Positions 15,385 through 62,384 of a DNA stretch of 64,000 nucleotides are shown here, piece by piece. The stretch's first letter is position 1, and each line of letters opens with the position of its first letter. A program made the translations under genes and the position numbers. The notes beneath the pieces are model-generated. The model was not told the DNA's origin and made no database searches. It saw only the letters and a list, made by a program, of their open reading frames with translations. The DNA comes from Tubulanus polymorphus (lineage: Eukaryota > Animalia > Nemertea), in the NCBI RefSeq assembly GCF_964204645.1, contig NC_134032.1, positions 7,242,275-7,306,274 on the forward strand, in the 5' to 3' direction.

Positions 15385-15385
<1 letters not shown>

Positions 15386-15436
<51 letters not shown>
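15386..15436. repeat. (AAT)n microsatellite in HINE copy A
   Basis: Perfect aat repeats. Confidence 0.95.
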
Positions 15437-15437
<1 letters not shown>

Positions 15438-15489
15438 GAAACACGTGAATATCAATAGGGTTTTCTGTGATGTAACAGAAAACCCTAAT

Positions 15490-21677: not shown

Positions 21678-22822
21678 TGATCCAAATGATTTCTTTATTT
21701 TAATCAAGATTTCCTCTAAAAAAACGATTTTCATTGTTGAAATTGAAGTTTTTATTTTCTGATTGCTACCGCAACATTACTTAAAAACCAATAAAGATAA
21801 TTGAAAACGGTAAAAAGCACATAACATTACATATAGATGTCCATCGATCCTGAAATTTCAAAAATGTCGATTAAAATTTGTAAGAATTACGAACTTTTGA
21901 ATGAGGTGGGCAATAATTCAAGTTGAATTAGCGGGAAGACAATACCAATAGAAACTCAACCAGCGCACATTGTTGCGTCAAATTTATGAATGAGTAATAG
22001 CATAACAAAGTTAATTATCAGCTGAGATCATCGATATTTTCACTTTGTTTCTATCTCAATCCAGAGATATGAACGAAATAAGAAAATTAAACGGGGCAAA
22101 AATAGGGACAAAAAATTCAACGATGCGGACCCGGCAGGTACCCAAAAATGGCACCTGGAAACTGTAAAAAGTCTTATTGTTGTGTGTCAGATAAATCAGT
22201 TTGACAAAATATATTAAATATGGTGTTGTTGTGTGTGAAATTGGACACAGGCACCCAAGATCATTCTGTCCGCCGTAGTACTTCGTGTCAATCACCCAAA
22301 TAGATTCAAGGCATGTCGAAGACTGAAAGACATTTTTGACAATGTTTTCATTCAGTGAGAGTACATGTAGTTGTGATCACGATAGGTAGAACACAATATC
22401 CGTGTTGACGCGATGAGGAGAGAATCCCACAATGATAATAAAAAGTCCGAAAATGAAACTTCGAGATAGTAGTTTATTTCAACGTTTCGACTATATCCTA
22501 ATAATCATCTTCAGGAATAATGAGAAATTATGAGATATATATACAATCCAGAGACAAAGAGACTAATTCAAGTAATCAGAGATGATACAAACTAAAGGAA
22601 AATTAACGTAGAAACAGTTACACGCTAAAATAGATTAAAGGGAAGCAAACTAAGGGGTGATTATAAACAACAATAGTGAGTATAAATATAAATGAAACTT
22701 AAAGTCAGTAGTAAAAAGAAAGACAAACTAGGGGGCACTTAAATTAAAACAAAGGTGAATACAAGTTAAGTCAGAGACGAAATTGATGAGAGAACAAATA
22801 ACAAATAATCAAAGGGAAAATC

Positions 22823-24502
22823 AAGTGTTGAGTTTAGCCAGTTTACTGAGGAATTTTGATATAAGTTTATTATGGGGTGAAAAACCATTGTTAAGGTTTA
22901 CAACGTTGTTCGAATTTTCAATAATTAATGCAGATTCCAAATTATATGTCTTCTAGTTTTATCGCTGCAAGGGTAAATTAATTCAGCATTAGCAAAATCA
23001 AAATTGTGTGAAGTCTGAAAAACATGACTAGCAACTCCGCTTTCAGGTTTAAAGTTTTTTACATCTAATTTATGCTCTTTTATGCGTTGATTAAGATTCC
23101 GACCTGTTTCTCCTAGATATACTTTGTCGCAAACTTTACAAGGTATTTTATAAATTCCACAGTTTAGGGATTCGGTTTTCGGTTTGTTGTTAATCAATAT
23201 GTTACTAAGTTTATTATTGTATTTAAAGATAAGTTGTTTATTTAGTGACCGAAGAGAAACTTTAGAATTCTCGAGGAAAGGTACATACGGTACAATGATA
23301 GGCTGTTTATCGGTAGCCAGCGTAGGAGTTCTAAGGTTGTTATTTCTAAAATGCGTAGTACGAGCTTTAAGTAGAGCTTTTTTCAATAGGAAATCGGGGT
23401 AGGCAAGTTTTTTGAGAGATTGGTTAATATGGTGAATTTCATCGGGTAGAAATGAGGGGTCGCAAATTCTCAAAGCGCGAAGAAATAATCCTTGAGCTAA
23501 ACCGAGTTTAATATCCGGAGAAGTAAAAGAGAAGTAATGGAGGTAGGATTCAGCGTTGGTAGGTTTCCTATAAACCGCGAATTTCAAAAAGGATCCACAG
23601 TTAAAAATCAAAACATCCAGAAAAGGTATTTTACTATTAGATTCCCATTCATACGTAAAAGCCAGAGACGGGTAAAGGGAGTTTAAATATATAAGAAAGT
23701 TATCAACATTGAAGTCAAAGGGAACCAAAGCCAGAACATCGTCAACATATCTGAGCCAGATTTTAGGGTGAATATCAGTGTAAAGTGGCAATATTTCAGA
23801 TTCAACGTGTTCTAGGAATAAATTAGCTAGAATAGGACTAAGAGGATTTCCCATAGCGATACCGAATGTCTGTTCGTAAAAACAATTGTTGAATTCAAAA
23901 AAGGAGTCCGTCGTACAAATAGAGATAAGGTCGATGATACAATCCGTAGGAATGCCGAAGTTAATGTTAAGTGATGGTAATCAGCGTTTTAAGAAATCAA
24001 GAGTAGGTCCAAGAGGAACATTGGTAAAAAGGGAAGTAACATCAAATGATATAAATTTGTCGTTGCCAGGGATAATATTCTTAATACGTTCAAGTAAGTG
24101 TTGATTATGGCGAAGGTGCGACGGAGAGAACGAACCGAGCACCGGAGATAAATGTTTGGCGAGAAATTTAGATAACCGGTATGTAGGAGAATTACAATTG
24201 GAGACTATAGGGCGCAGTGGAACATTATCTTTATGAATTTTAGGCAATCCATAGATATATGGTAAAGAGGGAAGACGTGAATGGAACTTATTCAGAGTTT
24301 CTTTAGCGGAGGGGAAACGTTTAATAATATCCGAAAGACTTCTGTTGAAATTAGCTTGCATACGAGGAAGAGGATTCGATTTAAGTTTCTTATAAACACC
24401 AGGATTATCCAAGAGAGATTGCATTTTAACATTATAATTATCCAGATCTAAAATCACAATCTTGCCACCTTTATCAGCCTTAGATATTTTAATAGTCTTC
24501 AA
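22823..24502 (-). pseudogene. Penelope RT + GIY-YIG endonuclease (in-frame stop at 23981, frameshift ~22940)
   Basis: KADKG, YGLPKIHK..PLRPIVS, SFDVTSLFTNVP, MGNPLSP, WLRYVDD, PFLDV, VYRKPT, GIYKIPC..YLGETGR..RIKEH. Confidence 0.95.
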
Positions 24503-24579
24503 CTTCCGTATTTCTTGGAGGGCGAGCCGAAATCGACGAGGTAGATATTCAAAAAGGTTCCTAAGGCTGATAATAATTA

Positions 24580-25587
24580 ATATCTAAGGCTGATAAAGGT
24601 GGCAAGATTGTGATTTTAGATCTGGATAATTATAATGTTAAAATGCAATCTCTCTTGGATAATCCTGGTGTTCATAAGAAACTTAAATCGAATCCTCTTC
24701 CTCGTATGCAAGCTAATTTCAACAGAAGTCTTTCGGATATTATTAAACGTTTCCCGTATGAATGGGAATCTAATAGTAAAATACCTTTTCTGGATGTTTT
24801 GATTTTTAACTGTGGATCCTTTTTGAAATTCGCGGTTTATAGGAAACCTACCAACGCTGAATCCTACCTCCATTACTTCTCTTTTACTTCTCCGGATATT
24901 AAACTCGGTTTAGCTCAAGGATTATTTCTTCGCGCTTTGAGAATTTGCGACCCCTCATTTCTACCCGATGAAATTCACCATATTAACCAATCTCTCAAAA
25001 AACTTGCCTACCCCGATTTCCTATTGAAAAAAGCTCTACTTAAAGCTCGTACTACGCATTTTAGAAATAACAACCTTAGAACTCCTACGTTGGCTACCGA
25101 TAAACAGCCTATCATTGTACCGTATGTACCTTTCCTCGAGAATTCTAAAGTTTCTCTTCGGTCACTAAATAAACAACTTATCTTTTAATACAATAATAAA
25201 CTTAGTAACATATTGATTAACAACAAACCGAAAACCGAATCCCTAAACTGTGGAATTTATAAAATACCTTGTAAAGTTTGCGACAAAGTATATATAGGAG
25301 AAACAGGTCGGAATCTTAATCAACGCATAAAAGAGCATAAATTAGATGTAAAAAACTTTAAACCTGAAAGCGGAGTTGCTAGTCATGTTTTTCAGACTTC
25401 ACACAATTTTGATTTTGCTAATGCTGAATTAATTTACCCTTGCAGCGATAAAACTAGAAGACATATTTTGGAATCTGCATTAATTATTGAAAATTCGAAC
25501 AACGTTGTAAACCTTAACAATGGTTTTTCACCCCATAATAAACTTATATCAAAATTCCTCTGTAAACTGGTTAAACTCAACACTTGA
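24580..25587 (+). pseudogene. Second Penelope ORF copy with the RT core deleted (IIKRFP fused to YEWES) and GIY-YIG retained
   Basis: Near-identical to the minus arm apart from the deletion and point changes. Confidence 0.9.
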
Positions 25588-25894
25588 TTTCCCCTTTGAT
25601 TATTTGTTATTTGTTCTCTCATCAATTTCGTCTCTGACTTAACTTGTATTCACCTTTGTTTTAATTTAAGTGCCCCCTAGTTTGTCTTTCTTTTTACTAC
25701 TGACTTAGAGTTTCATTTATATTTATACTCACTATTGCTGTTTATAATCACCCCTTAGTTTGCTTCCCTTTAATCTATTTTAGCGTGTAACTGTTTCTAC
25801 GATAATTTTCCTTTAGTTTGTATCATCTCCGATTACTTGAATTAGTCTCTTTGTCTCTGGATTGTATATATATCTCATAATTTCTGTAGTATCT

Positions 25895-25945
25895 CATTAT
25901 TCCTGAAGATGACTATCAGGATATAGTCGAAACGTTGAAATAAAC
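25895..25945 (+). ncRNA. Minimal type I hammerhead ribozyme motif in the Penelope pLTR (mirror copy at 22471-22520, minus strand)
   Basis: CTGAAGA-t-GACTAT-caggat-ATAGTC-GAAAC-GTT with palindromic AACGTT and ttatt/aataa closing stem; PLE pLTRs are known to carry such motifs. Confidence 0.75.
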
Positions 25946-26469
25946 TACTATCTCGAAGTTTCATTTTCGGACTTTTTATTATCATTGTGGGATTCTCTCC
26001 TCATGTAGTTGTGATTTCTCGGTGCTGGTATGAGTGAATGCTGGCAAACCTCTTTATGACACATATTACTTGCGAAAGCTGGTTACCTTAGCTTTAAAAA
26101 ACAAAGAAGGGTTGCTTCCAAATAGAAAAGTTGCCTGCTGGTCAATATTTCCAAATGAACGCTGCCTGCCGGGTCATTTTCAGGGATTTTGAAAATGAGA
26201 AACAAGGTATCATTTCTTTGCCTAAAACACTTATAAAAATAAATATCAAGTTAGAATTTACAGTTGACTACCAGTAAGATTAATTGCAGGTATACATTTT
26301 ATAATTATATAAGATAAAAAGGAAGAATTGAGTATCACTGAAGCATCCGAAGAAGAAACCACAAGGAAACGAAAAAGAAAAACTTTTGACGACTGTGTTC
26401 TTCATGGCATATAATTCTTTGAAATTCTTTGAATTTCGTCATCCATTTGTTAATAAAAATAGTTGATAA

Positions 26470-32741: not shown

Positions 32742-33346
32742 AAACAACGCTAGATAATACAATTTCATTTACAGGAGCAAATGTTATTTCGAATATAACG
32801 TCTTCTTGAATTGCATATTTATATAAAGGCGCATTATTATTTATCAATTCAAAGTCTAATGGAATTTTATATTTGCTTCCATAAATCTGTTTTATCAAAT
32901 TATCTGCGGTACGAGTTACTATTGCGTCATTAGCTCCTGATCTTAATTTATTTTGGTTTTCTGATTGGATGCCTTGAAATATCATATTATTTCTATTTTC
33001 TTTAGTTAACCATAAATCTTTATAATGCATAAATAAATTATAATCATCTAATGAGAAAACTGTTTCTGGACCAATCTTTGTAGTTAATTTTTTAATCAAA
33101 TACCTTCCAACATTATCAACAACATAATTATTATTATTACCGATTACTTTTATATCGGCTGATGAATAAATACTATTTGGAACGTAAAAAGTATTATGTG
33201 TTAATCGAGGAATTCTAACATATAAAGTTTCATCGGGATTAATATTAGAAGGGTTATGAGTAATTAATTATATGATGTGATCTTTCTGCTTTAATAGCAT
33301 TAGATATTCTAGAAATCTTAGAAGAACTTATATAACTCCCACTCAT
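32742..33346 (-). pseudogene. Putative double-jelly-roll major capsid protein, N-terminal part (frameshift ~33265, truncated)
   Basis: HNPSNINPDETLYVRIP..VPNS..DNVGRYLIKK..YKDLW..QGI..YGSKYKIPLDFEL..PLY..FEITF resembles MCPs of invertebrate endogenous Polinton-like viruses (recalled, not searched). Confidence 0.6.
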
Positions 33347-33365
33347 TTATTTAACAAAAAATTAA

Positions 33366-34830
33366 TTATTTATTTTTGATCATGTTCACTAACCCAAAAA
33401 AAATTGCACTTACAACTGTAATTAAAAATAAAATAATATGTTCAGCAGCAAAGTTAATAATGTTTCCTGCAGATTTCAATATAAAACCAACAATTGATGC
33501 AATAATTCCTGGTAATGCTGCAGCAGATTTTTTAGATAGTTCCCATAAATATTTTGCTAATTTCTTTAAACCATCCTTAACTTTATCTTGTATAGAATTA
33601 TTATCATTCGGGGGTTTATCCGGTTTATTTGGAGTAGGAGTAGATTTCAGTGAATTTGATATAGCTAAACCAATTGTTGTAAATAACATAGTTACAGCTG
33701 TTAGAATTGAAAGAATTGTTATTCCTTCAAACTTAAATAATAATTTTATTCTATCTTTTAGTGATATGTCAGAATTTGGTTTTAGTATTAACTCTTTAAC
33801 AACAACTTTTAATCTATTAACACAATAATCATATGATTTTAATAATAATTTCATTTTTTCTTTCTGAAATTCTATGTTATATTCTAAATCATCAATTTCT
33901 TTTTCTAAATATGCATTTCTTTTTATGAATTAAATTTCTTCAATAACTTTAAATTCTCTATCTAATTTTAATTGTTCTAATTCTTTTCTGGTGTCAAATA
34001 ATTCATTTTTTAAAGGTTTAATTTTATTATATCTAATAGTTTTTTCGCGCGCAATTTTATCAGCTTCATTTCGTATACTTATTATTTCTCTAATTGTTTT
34101 TTTTAGAAAACATACTTATAGCTTCTATTTCTTGATCTGTTGCATCAAGTAATCCATTCGGTAAAAGTTTTTCAGTTTGAACTTCGTTTGATTTAAGTTT
34201 ACTAGTTTTGGAAGTTTTATTCTGTTCAGAAGTTGTTTCCGGTTCTAAATTATTATCGATTGTTTCAAATAAGTCATTAATTCTTTGTTTAAATACTCTT
34301 TTATTTTGATTTATTTCTTCTTGTGTTACATCTTCTATTTCATTACTATTATAACTTATTCTTTTAATTCTATCTGGTTCTAATTTTTCCAAAGTTGATT
34401 CTGCAAATATTTTTTCTTGTTTTTTATAAGAGATATCAATATAATAATCATCTTTCAAACGATAATATTATTCACCATCTAAAAACTTTAATTCTTGTAC
34501 TAAAAGTCTAGCGCCTCTATCATTTATATTATATCCAGAATCTTTAAATACACGTTGAAAATCATACATAAATTCAATATTTTCTAAATTTTGTCTTACT
34601 AAATCTGGATTTTCATTTTCAAGAGGTATTCTCGATCTAGTTCTTCTATCAAATTCATCTGTTGATGGGGCTTTAGAACCACTATCTGCTAAATTAGAAT
34701 TATATGCTGATTCATCATCATTATCAATATTAGTTTCATTAAAATCAGGTTGTGGTTCATCAGGTATAAATCCTTCATTATTATTTCCCATTTCTCCCAT
34801 TTCGTAATCTTCTCCACCTTCTACATCCAT
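33366..34830 (-). pseudogene. Large viral protein (acidic N-terminus, coiled coil, C-terminal multi-TM), split into 34468-34830, 34090-34458 and 33366-33854
   Basis: Consecutive same-strand fragments with only one TAAATG start (34830); hydrophobic segments ITILSILTAVTMLFTTIGLAI, ALPGIIASIVGFIL, IILFLITVVSAIFFGLV. Confidence 0.55.
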
Positions 34831-34846
34831 TTACATAATAAAAAAA

Positions 34847-36247
34847 TTAAAATTTAAAATATAGTATTCCTCCGATTACAATTCCTATACAAGTTATAGC
34901 TAATTTAGTATTTTCATGGGATTTATTATCATCATTTAGTTTAATTATTTCATGTCTAATATTATCAGTTTTTATATCTTCTGATGTATTATAATCTTTT
35001 ATTTTAGAATCATTATTTAATTTAATATTATCAGTTTTAGTTTCAGTTGATTGAATATGTTTTTTATTTTTTTCACCTTCCATTAATTTTGGAGCAGTAA
35101 TAATCTTTTTATTTATATCATTCAATCCAAATGAATTATTTATTGTTGCAGTTTAAATTAGATTATTATAACCAATTATGTTTCCCATCTTTAGTACTAA
35201 ATCATTAGAAATAATTAATAGATTAGGGCCTATACAATAATTTAATCTAATATGTGATTTATCTAAATAATTTTGAGATCTTACAATGTTTTCTGGAATC
35301 GATCTATTTTTATCATTATGAATGGAATCTTCAAATAATACTTTGAATTGTTTCTGTGTATCAAATGATGTATTTAAATTTCCAATTATTGGGGATCTTG
35401 TTTCAACTTGCGCACCTAAAATACATATCAAATAAGTTCTAATATATTGATTTATTCGTTGTATACCAGCTTTAGTGAAACCTTCACTATTTTCTAAAAT
35501 AAAATTAACCCAACCATCATTATTTTGTTGTTGTTTGATATAAATATAATATTTTGGTATTTCATTCCATTTAAACGTTTTTGAGTTTGTATTTTTTATT
35601 TCTTTTCTATATTTTTTAGTATAAGGGACAGCAAAACCTCCGATTGGAAATGATGAATTATTCATTGCATCCAAAGCTTTCTCTACTTTAGATAAATCTC
35701 CCCCTGTAACTGTTCCCATCTTTGATCTAAAATCAGAATTATTTATATCTATATTAAATTCATTACATATTTTATAATACTTTGATAAATTAATGTTATT
35801 ATCTAATTCTTTAAAATATCTAGACCCTGGTAAAGGACACTCTAATTCATTTAATATTAATCTTATTTGAAAGTATGTATGAAATCTAAAGAGTGATAAT
35901 ATTAATGGTAAACTTGGTTTATTTAAATGATCATTCCAACTTATTCCGCATCCTGTTGTTGCGCAATAAGCAGCAAAATTTAATTGGTTTTGCCAGAATT
36001 GCATATTTGATTTTAACATCCATAATTTTGCTTTACTTAATTCTTTTTCAAAATTAATTTCATAAACATTGAATATATTTTCCATCTTTACATGAAAATT
36101 ATTACTTTCAGTAACATAAATATATAAATCAATTAATGAATTTAAAACTTCATTTCTATATGTAATATCTTTATTAAAATCTATTGCTGGAATATTATAT
36201 TTAATTGATTTATTATATTGGAAAGCTTTTGGAAAACTATCTACCAT
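34847..36247 (-). pseudogene. Uncharacterised viral protein with C-terminal TM anchor (35153-36247 plus frameshifted 34847-35125)
   Basis: 364-aa ORF with WQNQLNFAAYCATTGCGIS, FRFHTYFQIR, YLICILGAQ; tail LAITCIGIVIGGILYFKF. Confidence 0.6.
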
Positions 36248-36269
36248 TTATATAATTAAAAAATTAATA

Positions 36270-36693
36270 ACTTATTAATTCTTTTAATAATTTATCTTGT
36301 TCTTCAACTGTTATATGGCCATTTAAACTTATTATATAATCTAGTGTATTCTTTAATTTATTAATTTCTATTAGTTTTAATTTTTTCTTTATAACTTTTT
36401 ATATTTAATTTTGAACTGATACCGGTTAAAACACTTGAACTTAATCCTAATACACCAATTGATATAGCTAAAGGTGTTAATGGACTGAATATTGCTAGAA
36501 ATGTTATTACAGAACTAATTGTAACCGAACCACTGATAATAAGATAATATATAATTTTACTTTTTAAATATTTTTTCTTTTTTATCTTTAAGTCACTTTC
36601 AAATTCTAATATTTGTTTTTCTAAATATGTTTTTAATTTAGTTTTATTTATATCATGAGGAATAATATCAATACTATCAACTTTATCTTCCAT
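36270..36693 (-). CDS. Small viral two-TM protein (probably frameshifted near the 3' end)
   Basis: IIYYLIISGSVTISSVITFLAIF and LAISIGVLGLSSSVLTGI; TAAATG start. Confidence 0.6.
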
Positions 36694-36712
36694 TTATTTA
36701 GAATAAAAATTA

Positions 36713-37135
36713 CTAATTAGTAAATTTATAAGCAACAAATATAACAATAACTGTTCCACCTAAAATCCATATTATTTCATATTTCTGTTGTTCTTTACTT
36801 GGGGTATAATAATCTGATAATTTAGGTTTGTATAGATGTAATTTTTCTTTATTGGTTACCGCGTTATATAAACTCATTGCATCATCAACTGATTGAAAAT
36901 CTCTGTGTGAAATCTTCTGATCATATAATTCTTTATTGATGTAATCCATATAGTTTTGTCTCTTTTCTCTATATTCTTCTGCTGCTTTATTATATTTCTC
37001 TAATACTAAGTTATGTCTTTTTTGTTCTGTTAATGAACCATTTTTATCAATATGCTTGAATAAATAACCACCCCCAGTAAATGCTAAAGCGTTAACAATT
37101 GCCGATCCTATAATAGTTATAATTGCAGAAGCCAT
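36713..37135 (-). CDS. Viral protein with hydrophobic N-terminus, coiled coil and C-terminal TM
   Basis: MASAIITIIGSAIVNALAFTGGGYLF..EQKRHN..IIWILGGTVIVIFVAY; intact ORF, TAAATG start. Confidence 0.7.
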   Translation of the reverse strand: MASAIITIIGSAIVNALAFTGGGYLFKHIDKNGSLTEQKRHNLVLEKYNKAAEEYREKRQNYMDYINKELYDQKISHRDFQSVDDAMSLYNAVTNKEKLHLYKPKLSDYYTPSKEQQKYEIIWILGGTVIVIFVAYKFTN

Positions 37136-37149
37136 TTATTTAGTAAAAT

Positions 37150-37380
37150 AATTATGTATTTATATGGGAGGAATATATTTTTGTTTTTCCAAATAATCAA
37201 TAGTTAAATTAGATAAAGTAACTGCTAATGTTAATTTTAAAATATCATTTATATCAAATCTATCAACATTAACACTTCCCATCTTGAATACTTTTTTAAT
37301 ACCATTGAATAACCAGCAGTTCCAACTGATAGTAATGCGCCATTATATAATCCAGTTATTATCCACTTATTATCACTCAT
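37150..37380 (-). pseudogene. Small hydrophobic viral ORF (frameshifted; not in the ORF track)
   Basis: TAAATG start at 37380 (MSDNKWITGLYNGALLSVGTAG...), then DINDILKLTLAVTLSNLTIDYLEKQKYIPP in another frame. Confidence 0.5.
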
Positions 37381-37387
37381 TTATTTA

Positions 37388-37727
37388 TCAAAAAAAATTA
37401 CTATCTTCTAAATATTTAGTTATCTTATTTATGATTAATTCAAAATTTATTTCATTACTAGTTTCATTTGTATATATTTCGATTATTATTTTTTTAATAT
37501 CATCGATGATAAAATCTTCATCGAATTCATAAAATCTTAAAGATTCTCTAATTAAATTAGTAATCTTTTCTACATTAAAAGTTTCTTTATCTATTGTTGT
37601 TTCATACTCAAATGTTGTTTCATTAGAAAATGCAATATTTTTAATATGTGTAATTACACCATTAACGTTAAATTTCATTTCTTTCTCATGTTTAAAAACA
37701 TATACTCGGCCCAACAGTTATATTCAT
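37388..37727 (-). pseudogene. Uncharacterised viral protein (likely start at TAAATG 37727, early frameshift)
   Basis: MNITV joins GRVYVFKHEKE after a 1-nt shift. Confidence 0.5.
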
Positions 37728-37743
37728 TTATATAGTGAAAAAA

Positions 37744-38502
37744 TTACTCTTTACATCTTATAACTAATTCATAAATTACAGGAAAGTTATTCAAATCAAT
37801 TAAATACCCATTATGATTTCTTATTTCTAATTTAAAATTATTAAATTTAGGAATACAAGGTTTGAAAACACATTCTGTTAAATTATAATTTATTTGAGTT
37901 CCAAATTGTGTAACATTTTTTAGCGGTAAAATATTTAGTATACTAGAACTACAAATTGTTTCTTTAGTTGCTTCGAAAGTTTTTGTAGGATCAATTAAAT
38001 TGCAATAAATATAAAAGTGTGTAAAAGGTATTATATTTGAATTACCATCTACGTTTCCTGTAACGGTATCTGGTGCAATTCCTAACAGTTTAGCTATGGG
38101 TTTTTTTACCATAAATGCATGTTGACTTTCATCATATACCTTTATTTTAATTTTATTTGTGCTATCACTTTTTATAAATCTAATTAAGAATTTATCTTCT
38201 CTTCTAATTTTCAACCGTGCTCTACGATTAATTTCTTGAGCTAATGTATCTAAATTATATAATCCTGGTTATAAAATTAGATTAAACCATTTATCTACAT
38301 TTCTAATATGAATTAAAACATTATTATCTTCAATAGTTTTATTCGTTATATTATAAAAAGAATTACATAAACTTATATTAACTAATTTTAAATCTACACA
38401 ATTCTTGAATTCTCTATCTAATTGTACTAGTAAATTATGAGATTTATAATTTGTAAGTTTTCTTGAATCAACAAATATTCTGTATTCTTTTAATTCTACC
38501 AT
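37744..38502 (-). pseudogene. Putative minor capsid (penton, single jelly-roll) protein, split into 38269-38502 and 37744-38214
   Basis: IFVDSR..LVQLDR..LKLVNISL.NSFYNIT; HFYIYCNLID..ILNILP..FKP..FNNFKLEIRNHNGYLIDLNNFPVIYELVIR resembles Polinton mCP. Confidence 0.6.
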
Positions 38503-38519
38503 TTATTTTACATATTTTC

Positions 38520-38873
38520 TTATTCGAAATCTATTTCCTGGTGCCCTTTTTCATTCTTACCTTTGTATACGAAATAGAAATCTCCAGAACATAATTCTTC
38601 TAGATCTTCACTTGATAATCTATGAAATCTATCTGGTAAATATGTTCTGAATTTATGTGTTTTTCCTTTTAATCCTTCATATTCTAAGTGTATAACTAAT
38701 TTATCTCCATAGTTATTAGTAACTGTATCAATATTTGTAATTAGATATTTCTTATGGATTGTTAATTCCGTTAACTTTTTGAATTTATAATCTATAGATT
38801 TTACATTTGTTATATCTTTTATTCTATCTAGAAATAATTTGTTGTTCTCACTGTGTGTTTGTTTACTCTCCAC
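38520..38873 (-). CDS. Putative OB-fold ssDNA-binding protein (start appears mutated, TAAGTG)
   Basis: FKKLTEL..KKYLITNI..V.NNYGDKLVIHL..RTYLPDRF..YFVYKG; position next to polB. Confidence 0.5.
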   Translation of the reverse strand: MESKQTHSENNKLFLDRIKDITNVKSIDYKFKKLTELTIHKKYLITNIDTVTNNYGDKLVIHLEYEGLKGKTHKFRTYLPDRFHRLSSEDLEELCSGDFYFVYKGKNEKGHQEIDFE

Positions 38874-38902
38874 TTATAATACATATTTTTATTAAAATTT
38901 GA

Positions 38903-41900
38903 TTAACACGTTAGAATTCTTTTCATTATCTCGTTCTCTTTTGTTTCTTCTCTTTTAAATTTTAAGTATTCATCTAAATTGCAACCATAAGCAACTGTAT
39001 GAATTCCATCATCTAAAATATATCTTTTATCATCAAATGGGTTTAGACTTATCTTTTCAATTTCTTCAATAAACATTTCATGATCTTTAGATCTTAAACA
39101 TCTCACCTTATGTTTTCTAACTTCTTCATTGAATATAGAATTGATGTAATCTTTGTAATGAATATTCTTTTCTACTACATTTTTGGTTATTCCTTTTAAC
39201 TTTTTAGCTTCATGTTCTTTAGTTTTATATGAATACATTTTAGATCTAATACCTATGAACTCTATCATTTCTTCACCGCCTAATTCATCCTTAAACTTCC
39301 CTGGAACTTTTTTATTATCATTGCTTAACAATTCATGATCTTTAGGATAGTTACTAAAATCAAAATGATGTTTTAATGTTTTTAAATCATCTGTTATGTT
39401 ATCAGTTTTTATCTTTAATATGTAACTGTCGGTATCAAAATATAATATTTCTATATGTTTTTCTCCAAAAAGTGGTTGTAATACATTATAATAGAATTCA
39501 TACATTAGTAATTTTGATAATTCTAAAACTGAAGCGCCAACATAGATTGGTTTATTAAATTTCATTGATGTTCTTCTCATTTTAACTGCGGCTAAATTTT
39601 CATCAAATATTCTGTTACCAATGAACTTAGGGTATGATTGTAAATGTCTAATTCTTTTACCATTACTGACTAACTCAATATCATTTCTATTTCTAATATT
39701 TACACAAGTCTTACCATAGAATGCATTGTTCATTAACTTGAAGAAATCTTTCTCGAAATCAGTTTTAGCTTCAGTTCTCTGTTTGGTGTTATAATCTATA
39801 TATTTTTCTAACCACTTAGATTGACTAAATGAAATATATCTATGTACTTTTTTTAGAACCATTCCTTGATTCAAATAAAACTTTAACATTCTATAATGTA
39901 CTACATAATTATATTTATCTTCTTGAGTTACCATTAACTTTTCTATATGAATATGATTTTCGGGTTTAATTCTTTTTTGGTAATTTGGTAATTTGATAAT
40001 TCTTCATGAGTTACAGTTTTATGTTCGGGGCAGTAAGCTAGATTTCTAGATTTAAATTTTTTATCTTCAGGATATTCTAAGTCTACAACAAAAAACTAAC
40101 CAGTCTCTGAATCATCTGCAATATCTAGAATTCTTTTCTTCCAATCAAATTTATCATTACTTTTCATTCTGTAAAACTTATTTCAAATACTCCATAAGGT
40201 TGTGGTTCCATCATTGCCCAACCATACAAATTATTTGCATCTATATATAATAACTTATATCCAGGGTTATCATTTACATTGAAATATCTATCACCTAATA
40301 CACCTGAAACTCCTCTTATAGATTTTTCAAATAATAATAATTGATCTATATTTGTTAACAAATCCATTTTTATATCTGTAAATTTTAATCCACAATCCCA
40401 TGTTAAACCTGGACTTGAATAACAATGACAAGGATCAATATTGAAATATTTTAGGTTTACATCTCTAAACCTTTCTAATATATCCGATAATAATAATACA
40501 TCTGATTTTAAATATATATCTACTAATTGCCCGTGATTTTCTATTTTGAAATGATTCCAAATATTCAATGTTCTATTATATACTTCATCTTTAACATATT
40601 CATTTTTTAATTCATCATAGAATTGTTCTTTTAATAATTCAGTTATATTGAAATCATTATGATTTTTATAGAAAGAATATGGAATTGCTCCTTTATATCT
40701 CATTAATTTAAAATCATCAATATTTGGGTAATATTCTTTTAATATCTTTAATTCATCATCAACTAATGATTTTGATAAGTTATCTAATGAACTATTTAAA
40801 AATCTATATGAATCTATAAATCTTAGGCAACCAAATTGGAATGATATATAATTCTCAGATGTTTTAGCTAACATTTTAAATTTATAAGTTGGTATTTTAT
40901 CTTTTGATCTATTTGAATTTAATCTTTCTATTTCATTATTGATTTCTTCTATTTTATGGCATAACTGTTTGATGAAAAAATGTGCATCATATCCTGATAG
41001 ATTATGTAATATAACTGGTACAAAATTAATTTTCTTAGCTTGTAAGTTACAATTCTCTTGTGCAGCGCCTCTAAACTTTCCGTTCAAATGATCATGGTCT
41101 CTTACTTTTTTATCTTTATCTGCAAACTCAAATGCTTCTTTATCTTCTTCTGTCATTATAATTTCTATATTTTTATTTAACTTTTCATTAAATCTTATTT
41201 CATATTCAATTAATAAGTCACAAAAATGATTGATAACATTTTCATTTCTATAATGATAATATTCACTTTCAATTAGTTCTGGATAATCAGATTTTATATA
41301 TAACCCGAAAGCTGCAGCTGATTGATGAATCTTTTTAATTGTATTTGTTTTTGGCGGTTCATCTGAAAAATCATTTTCATTAGAATTTAATTTCTTTCTT
41401 TTATAATATATTTCTTTTCTATCTTGATCAGTTAATTCTTTATTTAATGATTCAAAATCTCCATATATTACAAATGGTACTTTATTTTTGTAATCATATT
41501 TTTTGAATTCTAATATTTTATCCTTTTCATTTGGTTAAACTAATTTACAATAATCATGACTTTCACATAATTGTTTATGATTTAATAATGTATTTGCATT
41601 ACTGAATCTATGTAAACATTTTCTACATAGATATATTTTATTATGGTGATCACTTTCTGATTTAAAAAATAAATCTATTTGTTTAATCCACATTCTCATT
41701 CTATAGTATTAATATAGATTCTCATAATATAGTATATCTATAACATCATTTGAATCATAATCTTTTGATAAATATAAAGGTTCTAATGTATAATGTTTTA
41801 TGTTGATACCTTTTGTATTTGGTAATTTGATTAAATCAAATACATTTATCTTTATATTATTATCTCTTTCTATTTTTGGGATGTTTTTAATTCTAACAGG

Positions 41901-44900
41901 ATACTTATCTATCTTATAATTATTTTCAAATTGTTTATAATGAGTTAATCTAAAACTATGTTGTTTATAATCTTCAACTGGGTGCAAACAACTTATTATA
42001 GCCCATAGAAAACATTTATCATCTTCATTTTGTACATTTATAACAGCATTAGTTTTAAATGGTAGTTTAATATAACTCGATGCTTCAATATCTGGTTCTT
42101 TATAATATGATACATTATTTTCATCAATTGGTTTTGATTTAGTTAACTTATTATATTTTGTGTTATAAACATGTAAAGTCATAAATATTATTTCATCAAA
42201 TATTAAACCAGATCCTTCAAAATATTTCTCTTCTATTTTAGTTTTTACTTCATTATAACATTTATCTAATTTATCATCTATATGTTGTTTATATATAATA
42301 TGTTGTGAATGAGAATTTATATTATATATTGGTAGCTTCAGATTTCATAAATTTAACTTTTGATGAAATACTTATTTTAGGATATTCAACATCAGTTATT
42401 ATTTTTATTATTTCTTTCATATTTTCTAAATGTTTTTTATTTTCTTCTAATGTTTTTCCTTAATGAAATTTATACTCAATAGCAGCTGGGCCAATATCAC
42501 TTTTAAATGCTTCTGTTATTTCTATATCTTTTTTATTATCTAATGAATTAATATAATTTCTTACATCTTCCATGTATGGTCTTTTATTGTTTAATTTACT
42601 TTTTATGCTTTTAATTGTCTTCTGTTTCTTATTTTAATGATTCGAAATCTCCATATATTACAAATGGTACTTTATTTTTGTAATCATATTTTTTGAATTC
42701 TAATATTTTATCCTTTTCATTTGGTTAAACTAATTTACAATAATCATGACTTTCACATAATTGTTTATGATTTAATAATGTATTTTCATTACTGAATCTA
42801 TGTAAACATTTTCTACATAGATATATTTTATTATGGTGATCACTTTCTGATTTAAAAAATAAATCTATTTGTTTAATCCACATTCTCATTCTATAGTATT
42901 AATATAGATTCTCATAATATAGTATATCTATAACATCATTTGAATCATAATCTTTTGATAAATATAAAGGTTCTAATGTATAATGTTTTATGTTGATACC
43001 TTTTGTATTTGGTAATTTGATTAAATCAAATACATTTATCTTTATATTATTATCTCTTTCTATTTTTGGGATGTTTTTAATTCTAACAGGATACTTATCT
43101 ATCTTATAATTATTTTCAAATTGTTTATAATGAGTTAATCTAAAACTATGTTGTTTATAATCTTCAACTGGGTGCAAACAACTTATTATAGCCCATAGAA
43201 AACATTTATCATCTTCATTTTGTACATTTATAACAGCATTAGTTTTAAATGGTAGTTTAATATAACTCGATGCTTCAATATCTGGTTCTTTATAATATGA
43301 TACATTATTTTCATCAATTGGTTTTGATTTAGTTAACTTATTATATTTTGTGTTATAAACATGTAAAGTCATAAATATTATTTCATCAAATATTAAACCA
43401 GATCCTTCAAAATATTTCTCTTCTATTTTAGTTTTTACTTCATTATAACATTTATCTAATTTATCATCTATATGTTGTTTATATATAATATGTTGTGAAT
43501 GAGAATTTATATTATATATTGGTAGCTTCAGATTTTATAAATTTAACTTTTGATGAAATACTTATTTTAGGATATTCAACATCAGTTATTATTTTTATTA
43601 TTTCTTTCATATTTTCTAAATGTTTTTTATTTTCTTCTAATGTTTTTCCTTAATGAAATTTATACTCAATAGCAGCTGGGCCAATATCACTTTTAAATGC
43701 TTCTGTTATTTCTATATCTTTTTTATTATCTAATGAATTAATATAATTTCTTACATCTTCCATGTATGGTCTTTTATTGTTTAATTTACTTTTTATGCTT
43801 TTAATTGTCTTCTGTTTCTTATTTTAATGATTCGAAATCTCCATATATTACAAATGGTACTTTATTTTTGTAATCATATTTTTTGAATTCTAATATTTTA
43901 TCCTTTTCATTTGGTTAAACTAATTTACAATAATCATGACTTTCACATAATTGTTTATGATTTAATAATGTATTTTCATTACTGAATCTATGTAAACATT
44001 TTCTACATAGATATATTTTATTATGGTGATCACTTTCTGATTTAAAAAATAAATCTATTTGTTTAATCCACATTCTCATTCTATAGTATTAATATAGATT
44101 CTCATAATATAGTATATCTATAACATCATTTGAATCATAATCTTTTGATAAATATAAAGGTTCTAATGTATAATGTTTTATGTTGATACCTTTTGTATTT
44201 GGTAATTTGATTAAATCAAATACATTTATCTTTATATTATTATCTCTTTCTATTTTTGGGATGTTTTTAATTCTAACAGGATACCTATCTATCTTATAAT
44301 TATTTTCAAATTGTTTATAATGAGTTAATCTAAAACTATGTTGTTTATAATCTTCAACTGGGTGCAAACAACTTATTATAGCCCATAGAAAACATTTATC
44401 ATCTTCATTTTGTACATTTATAACAGCATTAGTTTTAAATGGTAGTTTAATATAACTCGATGCTTCAATATCTGGTTCTTTATAATATGATACATTATTT
44501 TCATCAATTGGTTTTGATTTAGTTAACTTATTATATTTTGTGTTATAAACATGTAAAGTCATAAATATTATTTCATCAAATATTAAACCAGATCCTTCAA
44601 AATATTTCTCTTCTATTTTAGTTTTTACTTCATTATAACATTTATCTAATTTATCATCTATATGTTGTTTATATATAATATGTTGTGAATGAGAATTTAT
44701 ATTATATATTGGTAGCTTCAGATTTTATAAATTTAACTTTTGATGAAATACTTATTTTAGGATATTCAACATCAGTTATTATTTTTATTATTTCTTTCAT
44801 ATTTTCTAAATGTTTTTTATTTTCTTCTAATGTTTTTCCTTTATGAAATTTATACTCAATAGCAGCTGGGCCAATATCACTTTTAAATGCTTCTGTTATT

Positions 44901-45310
44901 TCTATATCTTTTTTATTATCTAATGAATTAATATAATTTCTTACATCTTCCATGTATGGTCTTTTATTGTTTAATTTACTTTTTATGCTTTTAATTGTCT
45001 TCTGTTTCTTATCATTATCTTTATCAAAATAATCTTCACCTAAAATATCGTTATTCATATTTCTAATATGACTTTTAGATTTTAAATGTTCATTATAATA
45101 TCTTTTATCACTGAATGATTGATTACATGTATCACATTTGTATGTTTCTTTTTCATTCTTTAATTCATCTAATTTAGTTTCTAATATATCATCTTCATAT
45201 TCTAATTTCAATTTATTCTCTAAATGTGTTTTAGTTTTATTGTGTCTTGCTTTTTGGGATTTATCTATATTGATATTACATGTTGGGCTGTAGTACTTAT
45301 TTGCTTCCAT
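38903..45310 (-). pseudogene. Protein-primed family B DNA polymerase with N-terminal C2H2 fingers and an endonuclease-VII-like insert; frameshifted, internally triplicated
   Basis: YKCDTCNQSF..HLKSKSH; NVQNEDDKCFLWAI; VIYGDFES (ExoI); VRDHDHLNGKFRGAA; HNLSGYDAHF; FIDSYRF; YLKSDVLLL; YIDANNLYGWAM; KLMNNAFYGKT; YFDTDS; KMYSY; KLKGI. Confidence 0.95.
41443..45012. repeat. Three tandem copies of a 1190-bp segment of the polB 5' region
   Basis: Near-identical 157-aa ORFs at 41709, 42899 and 44089 (period 1190); a few substitutions between copies. Confidence 0.95.
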
Positions 45311-45513
45311 TTTGATATCAAATTTTTTATTAAAATTGATTTTAGAAGTTCAGTGATTTAAATATGTATTATTTCAATCACACTTTACTAACACTTTTAA
45401 TGTTTAAAAATCTAACTCACACAAATATGAATATTGAAATAATGTTGTAAATATATACTTTTATATTGAATAATCTGTCAATTTAAATGTTATTCATTTA
45501 CATGAATATTTTA

Positions 45514-45921
45514 AGAGTAATAGGGATAATGGGCTTTCAGGTTAAAGGTTGAATGGTCGAGTTCATTAAAAACAAATATTAAAAGTAATTTAAAACTATA
45601 ATATATTTTCATAACCGTGTGTATTTCAGTTGAATAATAGAATAATAATTATTATTAAAATATATTTGATTATATGAATTTGTGTATTGTAAATAAATCA
45701 ATTGGTCGCGGAGCGGAGCGGTAGCGAAGCGGAGCGACCAATTGATTTAATACAATATGCTTTTTAAATTATTGATATCTTAGAATAAATATTTAGTTAT
45801 AATATAAAATACGCACGGTTATGAAAATATATTATAGTTTTAAATTACTTTTAATGTTTTGTTTTTTAATGAGCTCGACCGTTCGACCTTTGGCTTGAAA
45901 GCCTATTATCCCTATTACTTT
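45514..45921 (+). other. 408-nt terminal hairpin of the viral element
   Basis: Outer arms ~45514-45627 / ~45807-45921; inner stem 45682-45760 with a GCGGAGC/GCGAAGC-repeat loop. Confidence 0.9.
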
Positions 45922-47827
45922 GGTGGTTTAGACAGCTTGTTTGAAAAACTGTCAATTCCCTGGAGCAACCTTCTTGCAATTCTTATGGATTCGTGCTCTG
46001 TGATGAGAGGTTCGAAAAATGGTCTCGAGGTTAAAATACGTCAGGAAAAGAATCCGTTGCTTCTTGATGTAGATGGGGACATCTGCCACCATCTGCATAT
46101 TGCTGCGAAACAGTTTGCTAAACCATTTGGAGGAAATGTTGAGGGACTTTTCAGTGACGTCCATAACGATTTTAAATGGTCTGCAGACCTCAATGACTGG
46201 CTCAAAGAGATTTGTTTCTTATTAGATGTACCGTATACTGTTCCAGAAAGATTTGTCAGTCATAGATGGCTGTCGGCTTATGACTGCGCTATTTCTACGA
46301 TTAAAATGTGGGATGCCTTCGTAGTTTTCTACTACGCATTTTTAGCGTCTGAAACGGCCACATATACAGATATGATATTGAGTATGTTCCGTAAACGCGG
46401 CACTAGTGTAGAGGCAAGAGCTCGTATCAAATCCATTTGGGAAGAGTTGCGAATTAAAGCCAAAAAGCTGACCGACGATGGCAAACAGCGTAAGAAACGA
46501 ATCGTCGATAAATTATTGTTTAAGCCGAAGGAAACGAAGTTAATCATCAACTTGTATATATCGGTTTATCCGTTGTTATCCAAGTACGTAAAGTTGTTCC
46601 AGGGATCGGATCCTCTCATTCATGTACTTCATGATAAAATCGAAGAACTGTTTAGAGAACTTCTATCATGTTTTGTGAAACAAGAAGAAATCATTGATGC
46701 AGACGTCAATCAGCTGAAATCCATGGATTTGGATGAAAGTAGCTCACGCTTACCGAGGAAAGAGTTTTTCGTTGGTGAAAAAAACACTTATGTAGTAAAA
46801 GACCACGGTCGTGACTCCGTGGTCACGGAGTTTCTGGCCAACACTGAGACGGCATATGTAGAGTGTGGAAAAACACTACAGAGGAAGTGACCATTACAAA
46901 ATTAATTCCTAATGGCAGTTTCAGCCATAGACCCGGCATGCCCAAAGCACCACGCCACGATGAATTGCCTCTTACAGCTGAAGAATTTGGTTGGCATTCT
47001 GGAAGAGTCGGAACTTGAACAGTACGACCTTGAAGTGCGAAGGTAAATTAATTATACGTGTACATCTATAACTATTTTTACGTGAGCTTTGATGCCAATT
47101 TAAAAAGAAATAATTTGTATCCTTGTCCTGGGTCTATGTATTTTTAATAGATGAGTATTCCCGATGTTTTTATTTTGAAAGGTTTCTGGTTGACAAGTCT
47201 TTGCCGTTATATAAGATCGATGAAAAAACTGGAAAACCAACTATGAGAGCGGATGTATGGTGGGGAATGGTAGATCGGTCGAAGTATCCAACACTTTGCA
47301 AGATGGCAACTACTCTGTTGTCTATATTCCACGGACCACAGGTGAGTTTAACATTTAATTTCATTCCATGAATAACTGCTACTAACAAAGTCATTGTACG
47401 AAATCTAATTCAATTTTATTTCTACCGTAGGTCGAGTCCAGCTTTAATATTATTGGTGACATTTTACACAGCAAGGCCAGTAACACTTGTATACGCACGT
47501 ATGCTGCCTATCAAGCAATAAAATATCGCCTTCGTTCTCGTGAAAAAACGGCAATAGAATTCTTCAGAAATGCTCCTCAGCTAGTTGCAACAAACATACA
47601 GAATTCTTCGCGGATTTACAGAAATGAGCTGAAAGAGCTAAGAGGCAAAAGAAAACAGAGAAAAACTACCCACAATAAAGAAGAGAAATCTCGAAACAAA
47701 AAAGACACAAAAAGTTAAATGCCAGGAAGCCGCAAAAAGAGCACGTGAAATACACATCAAAGCCCAGAAAGGAAAAAGTAGGGCGAGAGTGTTGGAAGAA
47801 CTGGCGAAAAAGCTGAAAAAGAACTAG
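45922..47827 (+). pseudogene. hAT-like transposase, 5' part missing; two GT-AG introns (47043-47181, 47342-47430)
   Basis: MDSCSVMRG, DGDICHHLH, HRWLS, DVWWG..YPTLCKMA..LSIFHGPQ|VESSF; both intron junctions restore the frame; possible 3' TIR ending ...AATCCCTCCTA at 48545. Confidence 0.8.
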
Positions 47828-51757: not shown

Positions 51758-52870
51758 TTTAGCAACACTAATCTGACAGCTAAGCTCTAAAATAGATATT
51801 GAGAAATGGGTATCAAAATAATCGACAGAATCTTGCGATTCTGAATTTTGTATTTATATTCAAGTATTATAAGTTTTATAAATCAATATGTTTGTGTTTT
51901 TTTTTATTAACTAAAATATTGTCTGAACCTATTGGAGTATTAACATTTTCATGCAAGCTGTTACCTTCCTGGCAGGTATGACCAGTCAAGGGTATCGCAA
52001 ACAAGCGAACTTGTCATTTCTTGAGATCGACAATCTGTCGTTCTGAGTAATTATTTATAATTTATAACAATGTGTAATTAACAAGTTTGTACCAACAATT
52101 AGCAGGTTTGGCATTGGTTACCACCAACAAGGGTGATCCAAACCTTAGTTACCGTGGGCAAAGTCACGGAACAGACCAATCAGGGTTATGGTATTTTTGA
52201 GGTATAAATAGTGGACGAAGGGCAGCTGAGGTCACTTTATGATGAACCTCGCTTTAAGGAATAAATCTGTGTATATTTTAATCGTCTGCTCTTCGTCAAA
52301 TTACAGGTATGTGTAATAAGTTTTATAATATTTTATTAAGTCATATTCTATGGAAATATTGACTAGGCCTAGGATGTACTTTATTTAATAATATTACTTA
52401 TTAAGTATGGCCGAATACATGGTGTTTTAATATAATAGTTGAAATAATATTAATCAATTATACTAGAGCAATAGTATGTGTTTAAATAGGTTAGATGTTC
52501 TTGAGCAGTTATGTTCTATTTCAATTAACTTGGCCGCCATTTTTGGCAAGTAATCAATGAGAATTACGGCCAGAATATGCTCGATATCAGAGAACATTAG
52601 TTTCGTATTTAAGTATTATGAAATAAGTCGACAGTATACTAATCATTAAGATAAACACGTTTTATATTTAATCTGTATCATTTATACTCATATATCATCA
52701 CATATCTATTAATGGCACTTTATGATGAACCTCGCTTTAAGGAATAAATCTGTGTATATTTTAATCGTCTGCTCTTCGTCAAATTACAGGGTCTTGCGTT
52801 TGTAGTTGTCTTAGCTAGAACTACCGAAAGTTACTGAGGAATACATCTATCCAAACTTTCTATTATTAAA
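51758..52870 (+). repeat. 5' LTR (TTTA...TAAA termini; TATAAATA at 52203; duplicated 75-bp block 52233-52307 / 52716-52790)
   Basis: Matches 61244-62356 except for at least two substitutions; followed by the PBS. Confidence 0.92.
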
Positions 52871-52871
52871 A

Positions 52872-52892
52872 TGGTGGAGAACCCAGCTTCGA
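52872..52892 (+). promoter_or_regulatory. Primer binding site, probably tRNA-Ala
   Basis: TGGTGGAGAA is complementary to the ...UUCUCCACCA 3' end of tRNA-Ala; repeated at 62358. Confidence 0.75.
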
Positions 52893-52898
52893 ATACCG

Positions 52899-54164
52899 AT
52901 GCCACAACCATCTAACTACCGTACGATCGTAACAAGACAACAAACGAACCAAGTTCGGCAAAACGTTGAAAACCCAGTATTGATTCCGCTATACGAGCCG
53001 CCGAGAGATATTCGACAAATTGTAGTTCGCGAGGAGGACGAGGAGGTACATCTGGCAGAAATCGACCAGGTGGATAACGGTATAGACATTAACGAAAACC
53101 TAGAGGGTAACATGCCTTATAAACTCGACCTTCCGGGTTACGACCACAGTCGGCCTATCAAAAGTTGGCTGAATGACTTTGACCGTTGGGTCCAAGCGAC
53201 AAATATACCGCTCGAGCAGCAAACCACAGCCCTAATACTGCGTTTATCTGGTTCCTCCAGATCCGCCATAGATACATTGACTCTCGAACAACAGAACGAT
53301 TTGGAGGAAGTAAAAAAATGCTTGGAAAATAAATTTAAACCTATAAGAGACCCAATGAGAGGTCTAGATAAACAACAAGCAGGCGAGTCCGTACAGGCGT
53401 ACATGGACCGAGTAGAAAGGGCAGCTAGCCAGTCAGAATTTACGTTGACATGTGCTATCGAACAGGCCATAGATTGCCTAAACGACTCTATTAAACCTTT
53501 GGTCGCAACTCATTGCCCTGATACATTTGATAAATTAAGGAAAATTGCAATGAACGCAGAATCAGCAGCAGGGGGTAAAATTACTGCGACTTGTAGTCTC
53601 ACCACAGCGGTCGACAAACTAACTAGTCATTTGGAAAATGTACAATTGCGACCGGACAATAAGGTGTGTGCATGTCAAGTAAACGCGATAACCGATAGTA
53701 AAAGTGACAATGGATTTAATTATGCGAATAGACAGAATTATCAAACGCATCAACAACAACAACAGTCCTGGTCTCCTCAATTCGTGCCACAGCCACAACA
53801 GTTTTGGCCGCAGCAGCAGTTTTGGGCGCCACAACATCAGCCGCAGTTCCAGCAACCGCATTTCCAGCAGCCGCAGTTCCAGCAGCAGCAGCAATTCCAG
53901 CAGCCGCAGTTCCAGCAGCAGCAGCAGCAGCAGCAGCAGTTCCAACAGCCGCAGTTCCAGCAGCAGCAGCAGCAGTTCCAACAGCAGCAGTTCCGGCAAC
54001 AGCACTACAGGGGACACCAGCGGCATAGAGGGAACAGCAATAGGAGAAATCAATGGTCGCAGCCAAATGGACAAAACAATTCAGGTAAACGGGTTCCATT
54101 ATGTTATACATGCAATACCCCAGGTCATATATCTCGAAATTGTCCGAACTCAGGTCAGAAATAG
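52899..54164 (+). CDS. gag: Gag (capsid, Q/F-rich low-complexity tract, CCHC zinc knuckle)
   Basis: WLNDFDRW..LRLSG.., QQAGESVQAY (MHR-like), CYTCNTPGHISRNC. Confidence 0.93.
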   Translation: MPQPSNYRTIVTRQQTNQVRQNVENPVLIPLYEPPRDIRQIVVREEDEEVHLAEIDQVDNGIDINENLEGNMPYKLDLPGYDHSRPIKSWLNDFDRWVQATNIPLEQQTTALILRLSGSSRSAIDTLTLEQQNDLEEVKKCLENKFKPIRDPMRGLDKQQAGESVQAYMDRVERAASQSEFTLTCAIEQAIDCLNDSIKPLVATHCPDTFDKLRKIAMNAESAAGGKITATCSLTTAVDKLTSHLENVQLRPDNKVCACQVNAITDSKSDNGFNYANRQNYQTHQQQQQSWSPQFVPQPQQFWPQQQFWAPQHQPQFQQPHFQQPQFQQQQQFQQPQFQQQQQQQQQFQQPQFQQQQQQFQQQQFRQQHYRGHQRHRGNSNRRNQWSQPNGQNNSGKRVPLCYTCNTPGHISRNCPNSGQK

Positions 54165-62356: not shown

Positions 62357-62384
62357 ATGGTGGAGAACCCAGCTTCGAATACCG

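Follow-up and report, generated by a model that had tools for sequence, protein, structure and literature searches.

Results

The window analysed here is a stretch of 64,000 nucleotides (nt) from the nemertean Tubulanus polymorphus (contig NC_134032.1, positions 7,242,275 to 7,306,274 of the forward strand). At window positions 32743-45919 it holds a decayed, truncated Polinton-type virus, a dead remnant with most of its genes broken. Nearly all ATG gene starts of this element lie in the motif TAAATG, mostly with a T-tract a short distance upstream. To judge from the sequence pattern, T-tract and TAAATG together are probably late promoters, which would be read in trans by the pox-type cytoplasmic RNA polymerase of a co-infecting poxvirus or a close relative.

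A two-part motif at the gene starts of the element

The first-pass annotation of this DNA had placed eight minus-strand start codons in TAAATG, and they are found there (A of the ATG at 33346, 34830, 36247, 36693, 37135, 37380, 37727 and 38502). It had also noted TAAGTG at an SSB-like gene, which lies at 38876-38871. Seven of the TAAATG starts match the N-termini of homologues in the related loci L001 and L002 (tblastn), and the start at 37727 agrees by eye with an L001/L002 open reading frame (ORF) beginning with the same residues. The sites are as follows; the eight with TAAATG are promoter-like motifs.

33344-33363, minus strand: T-tract, spacer and TAAATG at the start of the major capsid protein (MCP) gene
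34828-34846, minus strand: T-tract and TAAATG at the start of the coiled-coil/membrane gene
36245-36265, minus strand: T-tract and TAAATG at the start of the 440-aa family gene
36691-36711, minus strand: T-tract and TAAATG at the start of a small membrane-protein gene
37133-37151, minus strand: short T-tract and TAAATG at the start of a 140-aa gene
37378-37397, minus strand: T-tract and TAAATG at the start of the 75-aa family gene
37725-37745, minus strand: T-tract and TAAATG at the start of the 126-aa family gene
38500-38520, minus strand: TAAATG at the penton-candidate start, upstream A-rich and not T-rich
38871-38895, minus strand: TAAGTG at the SSB-like gene, upstream A-rich; the L002 homologue starts in TAAATG

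TAA was found at -3 in 8 of the 9 ATG gene starts, against 0.83 expected from shuffles of the 20 nt upstream of each start (P=3.4e-8). An in-frame TAA directly ahead of ATG is a stop, so that every TAAATG opens an ORF by itself. As a control for this bias, short ORFs of 20-49 aa in the TAAATG-type relatives were scored, and only 25 of 489 start in TAAATG; none of 21 antisense shadow ORFs does. Internal ATGs were set aside as an invalid comparison: an internal ATG that is in frame can have no TAA before it.

The upstream T-tract had not been described in the first-pass annotation. Seven of the 8 TAAATG genes of the window have T at -13, and in the same 7 a T-run begins between -17 and -13. When the 31 TAAATG starts of the window and of L001-L004 were taken together, T was present at -13 in 93% and A at -18 in 90%, and a run of four Ts within -18 to -9 occurred at 23 of the 31 starts (5.2 in shuffles). 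A two-part pattern, fitted afterwards, matches the 64 kb at 4 places, each of them a gene start, and has no match in 100 shuffles. The PolB gene (45310-45335) and the SSB-like gene (38873-38895) have instead of the T-tract a near-identical A-rich stretch, and the penton candidate (38502-38520) has a looser version of it. Such A-rich stretches are possibly a second temporal (intermediate) class, which we give as a lead only; the SSB-like gene of L002, unlike that of the window, carries a T-tract.

This architecture resembles that of vaccinia and mpox late promoters, in which TAAAT(G) lies on the start codon and a T-rich element peaks 10 nt before TAAAT (PMC11980589, PMC5294985). In the vaccinia late promoters described in PMC11980589, TAAAT and the G after it overlap the start codon, and a conserved T stands 10 nt before TAAAT, at -13. 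PMC3061580 contains an entomopoxvirus late gene with TAAATG. The difference is that the putative promoter stands here on a 13-kb Polinton-type element without an RNA polymerase, and that in a second clade of relatives (see below) the T peak is at -14.

Distribution of the motif among related elements

With the 440-aa gene as bait, 80 of 224 confirmed metagenome loci were retrieved. Their ORFs were grouped into families, the full-length members in 14 of these were scored at their first ATG, and the loci were merged into 47 DNA clusters. From the 46 clusters besides the window, 18 with fewer than two scorable starts were dropped and 28 were kept. Enrichment in related elements, which the first-pass annotation had proposed as a check, is indeed seen, and the trait is nearly all-or-none: TAAATG was found at 87 of 93 starts in 19 clusters, at 0 of 132 in eight, and at one of two in a single mixed cluster. 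In the close relative L002 it precedes 14 of the 17 ORFs of at least 60 aa, on both strands, including the A32 ATPase gene and an opposite-strand nucleoside kinase gene. The latter (L002 10340-10981) encodes a deoxynucleoside kinase with three homologues at 60-67% identity; its 38 matches point to no helper.

A second clade (21 rows, support 100; 31-39% GC) carries TAAATG before integrase, ATPase and capsid genes as well as before divergently oriented genes. Among 68 of its starts, T occurs 60 times at -14, 48 times at -13 and 52 times at -12, against a background of 39%. With 31-39% GC in the DNA of the clade, AT content alone does not make this T-tract.

Two explanations that need no promoter can be weighed against these counts. 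According to one, the motif is the AATAAA poly(A) signal of the upstream gene overlapping the next start, or plain AT-richness. AATAAA does cover -5 to +1 in 5 of 8 window starts and 15 of 31 starts of the window clade, and it is slightly in excess near second-clade stops (17/67 vs 11.1 expected, P=0.034). However, it covers only 14 of 68 second-clade starts, and the motif is fixed to the start and not to the stop, the spacers between them being 7-29 nt. At the gene ends of four groups AATAAA was counted in 6/17, 17/67, 0/18 and 3/86 cases, against 5.9, 11.1, 0.8 and 2.9 expected, and the groups were not separated by it. Plain AT-richness is contradicted by the composition-matched shuffles mentioned above. 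This explanation is largely refuted, and we consider it extremely improbable.

According to the other, TAAATG is a translation signal, whose in-frame TAA halts read-through from upstream or ties re-initiation to termination on long polycistronic RNAs. The in-frame stop itself and the tight packing of the genes are in favour of it, and 6 of the 99 TAAs scored do serve as stop for an upstream ORF. The remaining 93 do not; nor does the TAA in the window, as had been claimed, where the stop of the preceding gene lies 7-29 nt ahead of the start in 9 of 9 cases. Neither TAG nor TGA takes the place of TAA (one TAG in 70 second-clade starts), divergent genes carry the motif too, and a T-tract at a fixed distance would be left unexplained. 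A role in translation is thus improbable, though less so than a poly(A) signal or base composition.

A splice-acceptor reading of the TAAATG starts was ruled out, as there is no AG at the site. Trees were quick trees with SH-aLRT support only. In these the window clade groups with the TAAATG-free loci L005 and L006 (support 97-99), and a tree forcing both TAAATG groups together was rejected (p-AU 0.0022, 24 rows), which gives at least three changes of state. There is good though not final evidence, from these sequences, for more than one gain, or a loss, of the TAAATG trait.

Protein scans of IMG/VR gave no relative, a broad MCP alignment gave no usable pattern, and in a scan of prokaryote genomes a single locus was found, L081, whose starts could not be scored. 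The two-part motif matched an estimated 3,000 scattered stretches in IMG/VR; the 120 that were listed had nearly all one match each and were not used.

The start of PolB and the proposed early motif

The PolB gene starts in AAAATG at 45310, with TGAAATAATA upstream at 45376-45367, both where the first-pass annotation had put them.

45367-45376, minus strand: TGAAATAATA, the proposed early motif; no support as an early promoter

The sequence had been taken for an early promoter of entomopoxvirus type. This reading gained no support: in 10.8 kb of the element TGAAAnnnnA occurs 30 times on the sense strand, which is chance level. Read depth falls from ~1,830 to ~850 across the segment with TGAAATAATA, about half of the reads being without it, because many sister copies skip 45350-45481 or 45350-45498. 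In 1,778 of 1,864 reads PolB starts in TAAAATG rather than CAAAATG. In the relatives, PolB of L023 starts in TAAATG and that of L024 does not. The contrast between a late structural module and an early PolB is not supported either, since integrase, ATPase and nucleoside kinase genes of relatives start in TAAATG as well.

Which polymerase may read the motif

If the motif works as in vaccinia, transcription would start within the AAA, and by slippage of the polymerase the transcript would receive a poly(A) leader at its 5' end where a 5' untranslated region (UTR) would otherwise be. Such a leader would free the start from the need for a Kozak purine at -3. It is known that pox-type polymerases use a TAAAT initiator and that slippage gives 5' poly(A) leaders (PMC6211774). 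By analogy with Mavirus and its helper, Cafeteria roenbergensis virus (CroV), integrated copies would be silent until the late transcription factors of the helper appear; the capsid, ATPase, integrase and polymerase genes would then be expressed, and the element, after protein-primed replication, would spread together with the helper. Endogenous virophages share the late promoter motif of their helper, and different types bear different motifs (PMC8547959). A virophage lifestyle, in which replication needs a co-infecting large DNA virus and lowers its yield, may be proposed from the promoter only.

Alternatively, the promoter may be active in the nucleus. Host RNA polymerase II (Pol II) could read it there, perhaps aided by a factor that the element encodes, or a nuclear DNA virus could supply the polymerase; the pox likeness would have arisen by convergence. 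The element does integrate into nuclear DNA in many copies, and coral polintoviruses are expressed in sampled colonies (PMC11131425). Against this, T at -3 is nearly fixed: it is present in 70 of 70 second-clade starts, whereas 62 of 88 starts in the TAAATG-free group have a purine there. At -80 to -26, the Pol II distance, TATA boxes were not in excess in any group of starts. Furthermore, the signal overlaps the start codon, so that there is no room for a Pol II 5' UTR, and the two-part spacing fits vaccinia. Reading in the nucleus is therefore unlikely, although of the alternatives it deserves the most weight.

The motif might also be a relic: an ancestor would have relied on a pox-type polymerase, while the present elements move as nuclear transposons without using it. 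The window copy is decayed, and reads from sister copies are mostly 90-99% alike, which suggests a recent spread of the family in the host. However, 87 of 93 starts have retained the motif over a divergence of the proteins to 35-45% identity, and a neutral signal of 20 nt would have eroded. A relic is thus very improbable, slightly more so than a translation signal.

Several points weigh against a poxvirus-like helper. Neither helper sequence nor transcript nor 5' end has been seen, and a search of the literature on poxviruses of marine invertebrates found no paper on a poxvirus of such worms. In the TAAATG-type clusters 6 of 93 starts are without the motif, as is the integrase gene of L002, and the second clade has its T peak at -14 and not at -13. 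AT-rich rows with skewed composition can bias the tree test. For the coral polintoviruses, hallmark genes are reported as expressed in ~40-60% of 49 elements, and no helper is named where PMC11131425 reports this. Finally, TAAAN initiators also serve yeast cytoplasmic plasmids (PMC6211774), and for this reason the motif points to a pox-type polymerase and not strictly to a poxvirus. Relatives of poxviruses are wider than was known, as egoviruses show (bioRxiv 10.1101/2024.03.23.586382).

Taken together, of the poxvirus/virophage interpretation first proposed for this DNA, the Polinton-type virus and the enrichment of TAAATG are retained, with the two-part arrangement of poxvirus late promoters now seen in full, and late promoters for a pox-type polymerase acting in trans are the explanation that we think probable. 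The division into late and early genes, the early motif and the insect context are not retained. As to the last, the named homologues of a flanking retrotransposon env (described below) come from molluscs, the host looks lophotrochozoan-like and seems to be no insect, and an insect helper is unlikely.

Extent, gene order and decay of the window copy

The element is an island of 21-25% GC within DNA of 33-44% GC, and every gene is on the minus strand. From the right end, the order is a ~400-bp palindrome, the gene for pPolB (protein-primed DNA polymerase B), the SSB-like gene, the penton candidate, four small genes, the 440-aa family gene, the coiled-coil membrane gene and the first half of the capsid gene.

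32743-33346, minus strand: MCP gene, double jelly-roll; frameshift near the start, cut off by host DNA at ~32743; 74% identity to the intact protein P0121
33366-34830, minus strand: coiled-coil protein gene in pieces, hydrophobic segments at the C-terminus; homologue of a 485-aa L002 ORF
34847-36247, minus strand: conserved 440-aa family gene, premature stop near 35153; 168 homologues, 71% identity to L002; the bait for related loci
36264-37727, minus strand: set of four small genes, of which three have hydrophobic segments and only one, 36713-37135, is intact; from ORF reading and homologues in relatives
37744-38502, minus strand: penton (minor capsid) candidate with one stop inside, named from size and position only; 43-47% identity to L001/L002 ORFs
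38520-38873, minus strand: SSB-like small gene, no ATG start in the window copy; 31% identity to an L002 ORF
38903-45310, minus strand: pPolB gene, broken by stops and frameshifts; PF03175, E=1.9e-10
45516-45919, no strand: ~400-bp imperfect palindrome at the right end, bounds AGT...ACT; junction to low-copy host DNA

At 32743, 329 loose read ends were counted. The single-sequence fold of the penton candidate was unusable (pLDDT 39). For the SSB-like gene the nearest named Atlas cluster is Phi29 SSB at 0.87, which is a lead only. A 1190-bp piece of pPolB (~41436-45005) is present in three tandem copies, 99% identical; read depth is lower inside 41436-45005, which suggests that the triplication is peculiar to this copy or to the assembly.

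Folding of the right-end palindrome gives -120.9 kcal/mol (z=-21), with a GC-rich asymmetric centre. Its outer ~45 bp are common to sister copies and the inside differs. Such a structure could represent a hairpin-type end or two terminal repeats joined together, or else a foldback element of separate origin. For comparison with the terminal inverted repeats and the 6-bp target duplication of Polintons, the window offers only this one end, which begins with AGT and consists of the 400-bp palindrome.

In a genomic run with the same species label, read depth is ~550-950 over much of the element body and ~8 in the right flank; the reads are mostly 90-99% alike, and ~1,960 of them run from the right end into mixed sequence. 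By these three observations the element is a multi-copy integrated family. Most genes of the window copy are broken, so this copy cannot protect by making virions.

Capsid, gene content and classification

The MCP fragment is 74% identical to P0121, an intact protein of 415 aa whose model (pLDDT 94.7) resembles the double jelly-roll capsids of iridovirus, PBCV-1 and mavirus (PDB E=4.6e-17, TM 0.63), mavirus MCP ranking below the other two. With this capsid gene and the PF03175 match of pPolB, the identification as a Polinton-type virus was borne out. PF03175 is also found in L024, L035 and L075. An rve integrase and the A32 ATPase are not in the window, where the element is cut inside the MCP gene; both lie downstream of MCP in L002. 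A protease family was not detected among 15 ORFs of L002, 12 of L024 and 12 of L035, no contig of these being shown complete, nor was an RNA polymerase family among the ORFs scanned in the window and relatives.

The element fits a Polinton in the broad sense. Animal Mavericks/Polintons, as described in bioRxiv 10.64898/2026.06.19.733378, have in common with it pPolB, the double jelly-roll capsid and an end starting in AG, and with its relatives the rve-chromodomain integrase and the A32 ATPase. They differ from it in that no cysteine protease was found in L002, L024 and L035, several membrane-protein genes are present and there is no PF21738 match. The element may belong to the animal elements that the same preprint places outside the main Polinton groups. 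By analogy it would work like an endogenous virophage. It is not filed under Virophaviricetes; no protease was found in the relatives scanned, and mavirus MCP ranks below the iridovirus and PBCV-1 capsids in the fold search.

Mavirus and the endogenous mavirus-like elements (EMALEs) of Cafeteria are likewise integrating viruses with pPolB, rve integrase and a double jelly-roll capsid, with many endogenous copies and one motif before nearly all genes, the motif being lineage-specific (PMC8547959). Their motif, however, is the TCTA of CroV, their host is a protist and their helper is known, whereas in the relatives scanned here no protease was found. The yeast cytoplasmic elements pGKL1/2 share pPolB, the TAAAN initiator and 5' poly(A) leaders, but they have an RNA polymerase gene of their own and lack a capsid (PMC6211774).

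Polinton-like viruses (PLVs) have been found in entomopoxvirus occlusion bodies (PMC11296320). These (AHEV_PLV1/2, CBEV_PLV1 and Ca_PLV1) are also small animal viruses proposed to parasitise poxviruses, so the lifestyle of a poxvirus hyperparasite is not new. Compared by description only, they differ in having an adenovirus-type protease, no rve integrase and insect hosts, and the case made for them is co-purification and gene exchange.

Relatives with TATA-type starts

The loci L006 and L009 have no TAAATG and carry a T-tract and TATA(G) at gene starts instead. ATTT or ATTC followed by TATA 8-13 nt on, a pattern chosen after reading the sequences, occurs at 12 of 24 starts of L005, L006 and L009 against 0.4 in shuffles, and at only 3 of 80 starts of the high-GC group. 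Late promoters of African swine fever virus (ASFV) consist of TATTT at -15 to -11 and TATATA at the start (PMC5294985; PMC7458399). This T-tract upstream of a TATA initiator is like that of L006 and L009; the likeness concerns relatives and not the window element, and was fitted after looking. A satellite using an asfarvirus-type late motif is described in the pacmanvirus transpoviron (PMC11788076). The TATAG starts of L006 and L009 may instead be splice acceptors. Another TAAATG-free relative, L035, has a tail-fibre-like gene at 941-2218 (PF03906 match).

Flanking DNA

The flanks hold Ty3/gypsy, BEL/Pao-like and GIY-YIG retroelements. A Ty3/gypsy element at 51758-64000 has gag, an intact pol (54195-58307) and a baculovirus F-like env (58413-60935), with a tandem second copy 9486 bp on; the env has 13 matches, and the three named homologues are all from molluscs. 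At 22413-26004 there is a GIY-YIG/reverse transcriptase (Penelope-like) element, inverted head-to-head and 97-99% identical, and at 12338-17608 there are nested long inverted repeats (foldback-like) with 31-bp tandem arrays. A transposase-like ORF of the host flank, at 45844-46890, abuts the right end of the element; it may be hAT-like.

Implications for animal Polintons

No virion has been seen for animal Polintons, according to bioRxiv 10.64898/2026.06.19.733378. The word "promoter" has no match in the main text of PMC11296320, two 2026 PLV surveys, the coral study (PMC11131425) or the egovirus preprint (bioRxiv 10.1101/2024.03.23.586382). Searches of the literature for such a promoter motif in Polintons or Mavericks found no report of it; the papers that came up were on protist systems, were reviews or had no relation to the subject. 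As the searches did not extend to most subscription journals, to Repbase notes or to bioRxiv supplements, a prior note may exist.

In a wider proposal, which we make tentatively and think more apt to be wrong than right, the protease-less animal Polinton lineage would be satellites of Pokkesviricetes whose promoters record the helper. The TAAATG type would depend on undiscovered poxvirus-like viruses of marine and other invertebrates and the TATA type on asfarvirus-like viruses, with helper switches along the tree, and intact endogenous copies would be an inducible antiviral reserve.

A pox-type late promoter before nearly every gene would supply a mechanism for the activation of animal Polintons, one that is cheap to test, and would bear on the question whether these elements are viruses that depend on helpers. 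Gene starts would become a means to predict helpers from genomes alone, and the motif would predict pox-like viruses in invertebrate groups where we found none reported.

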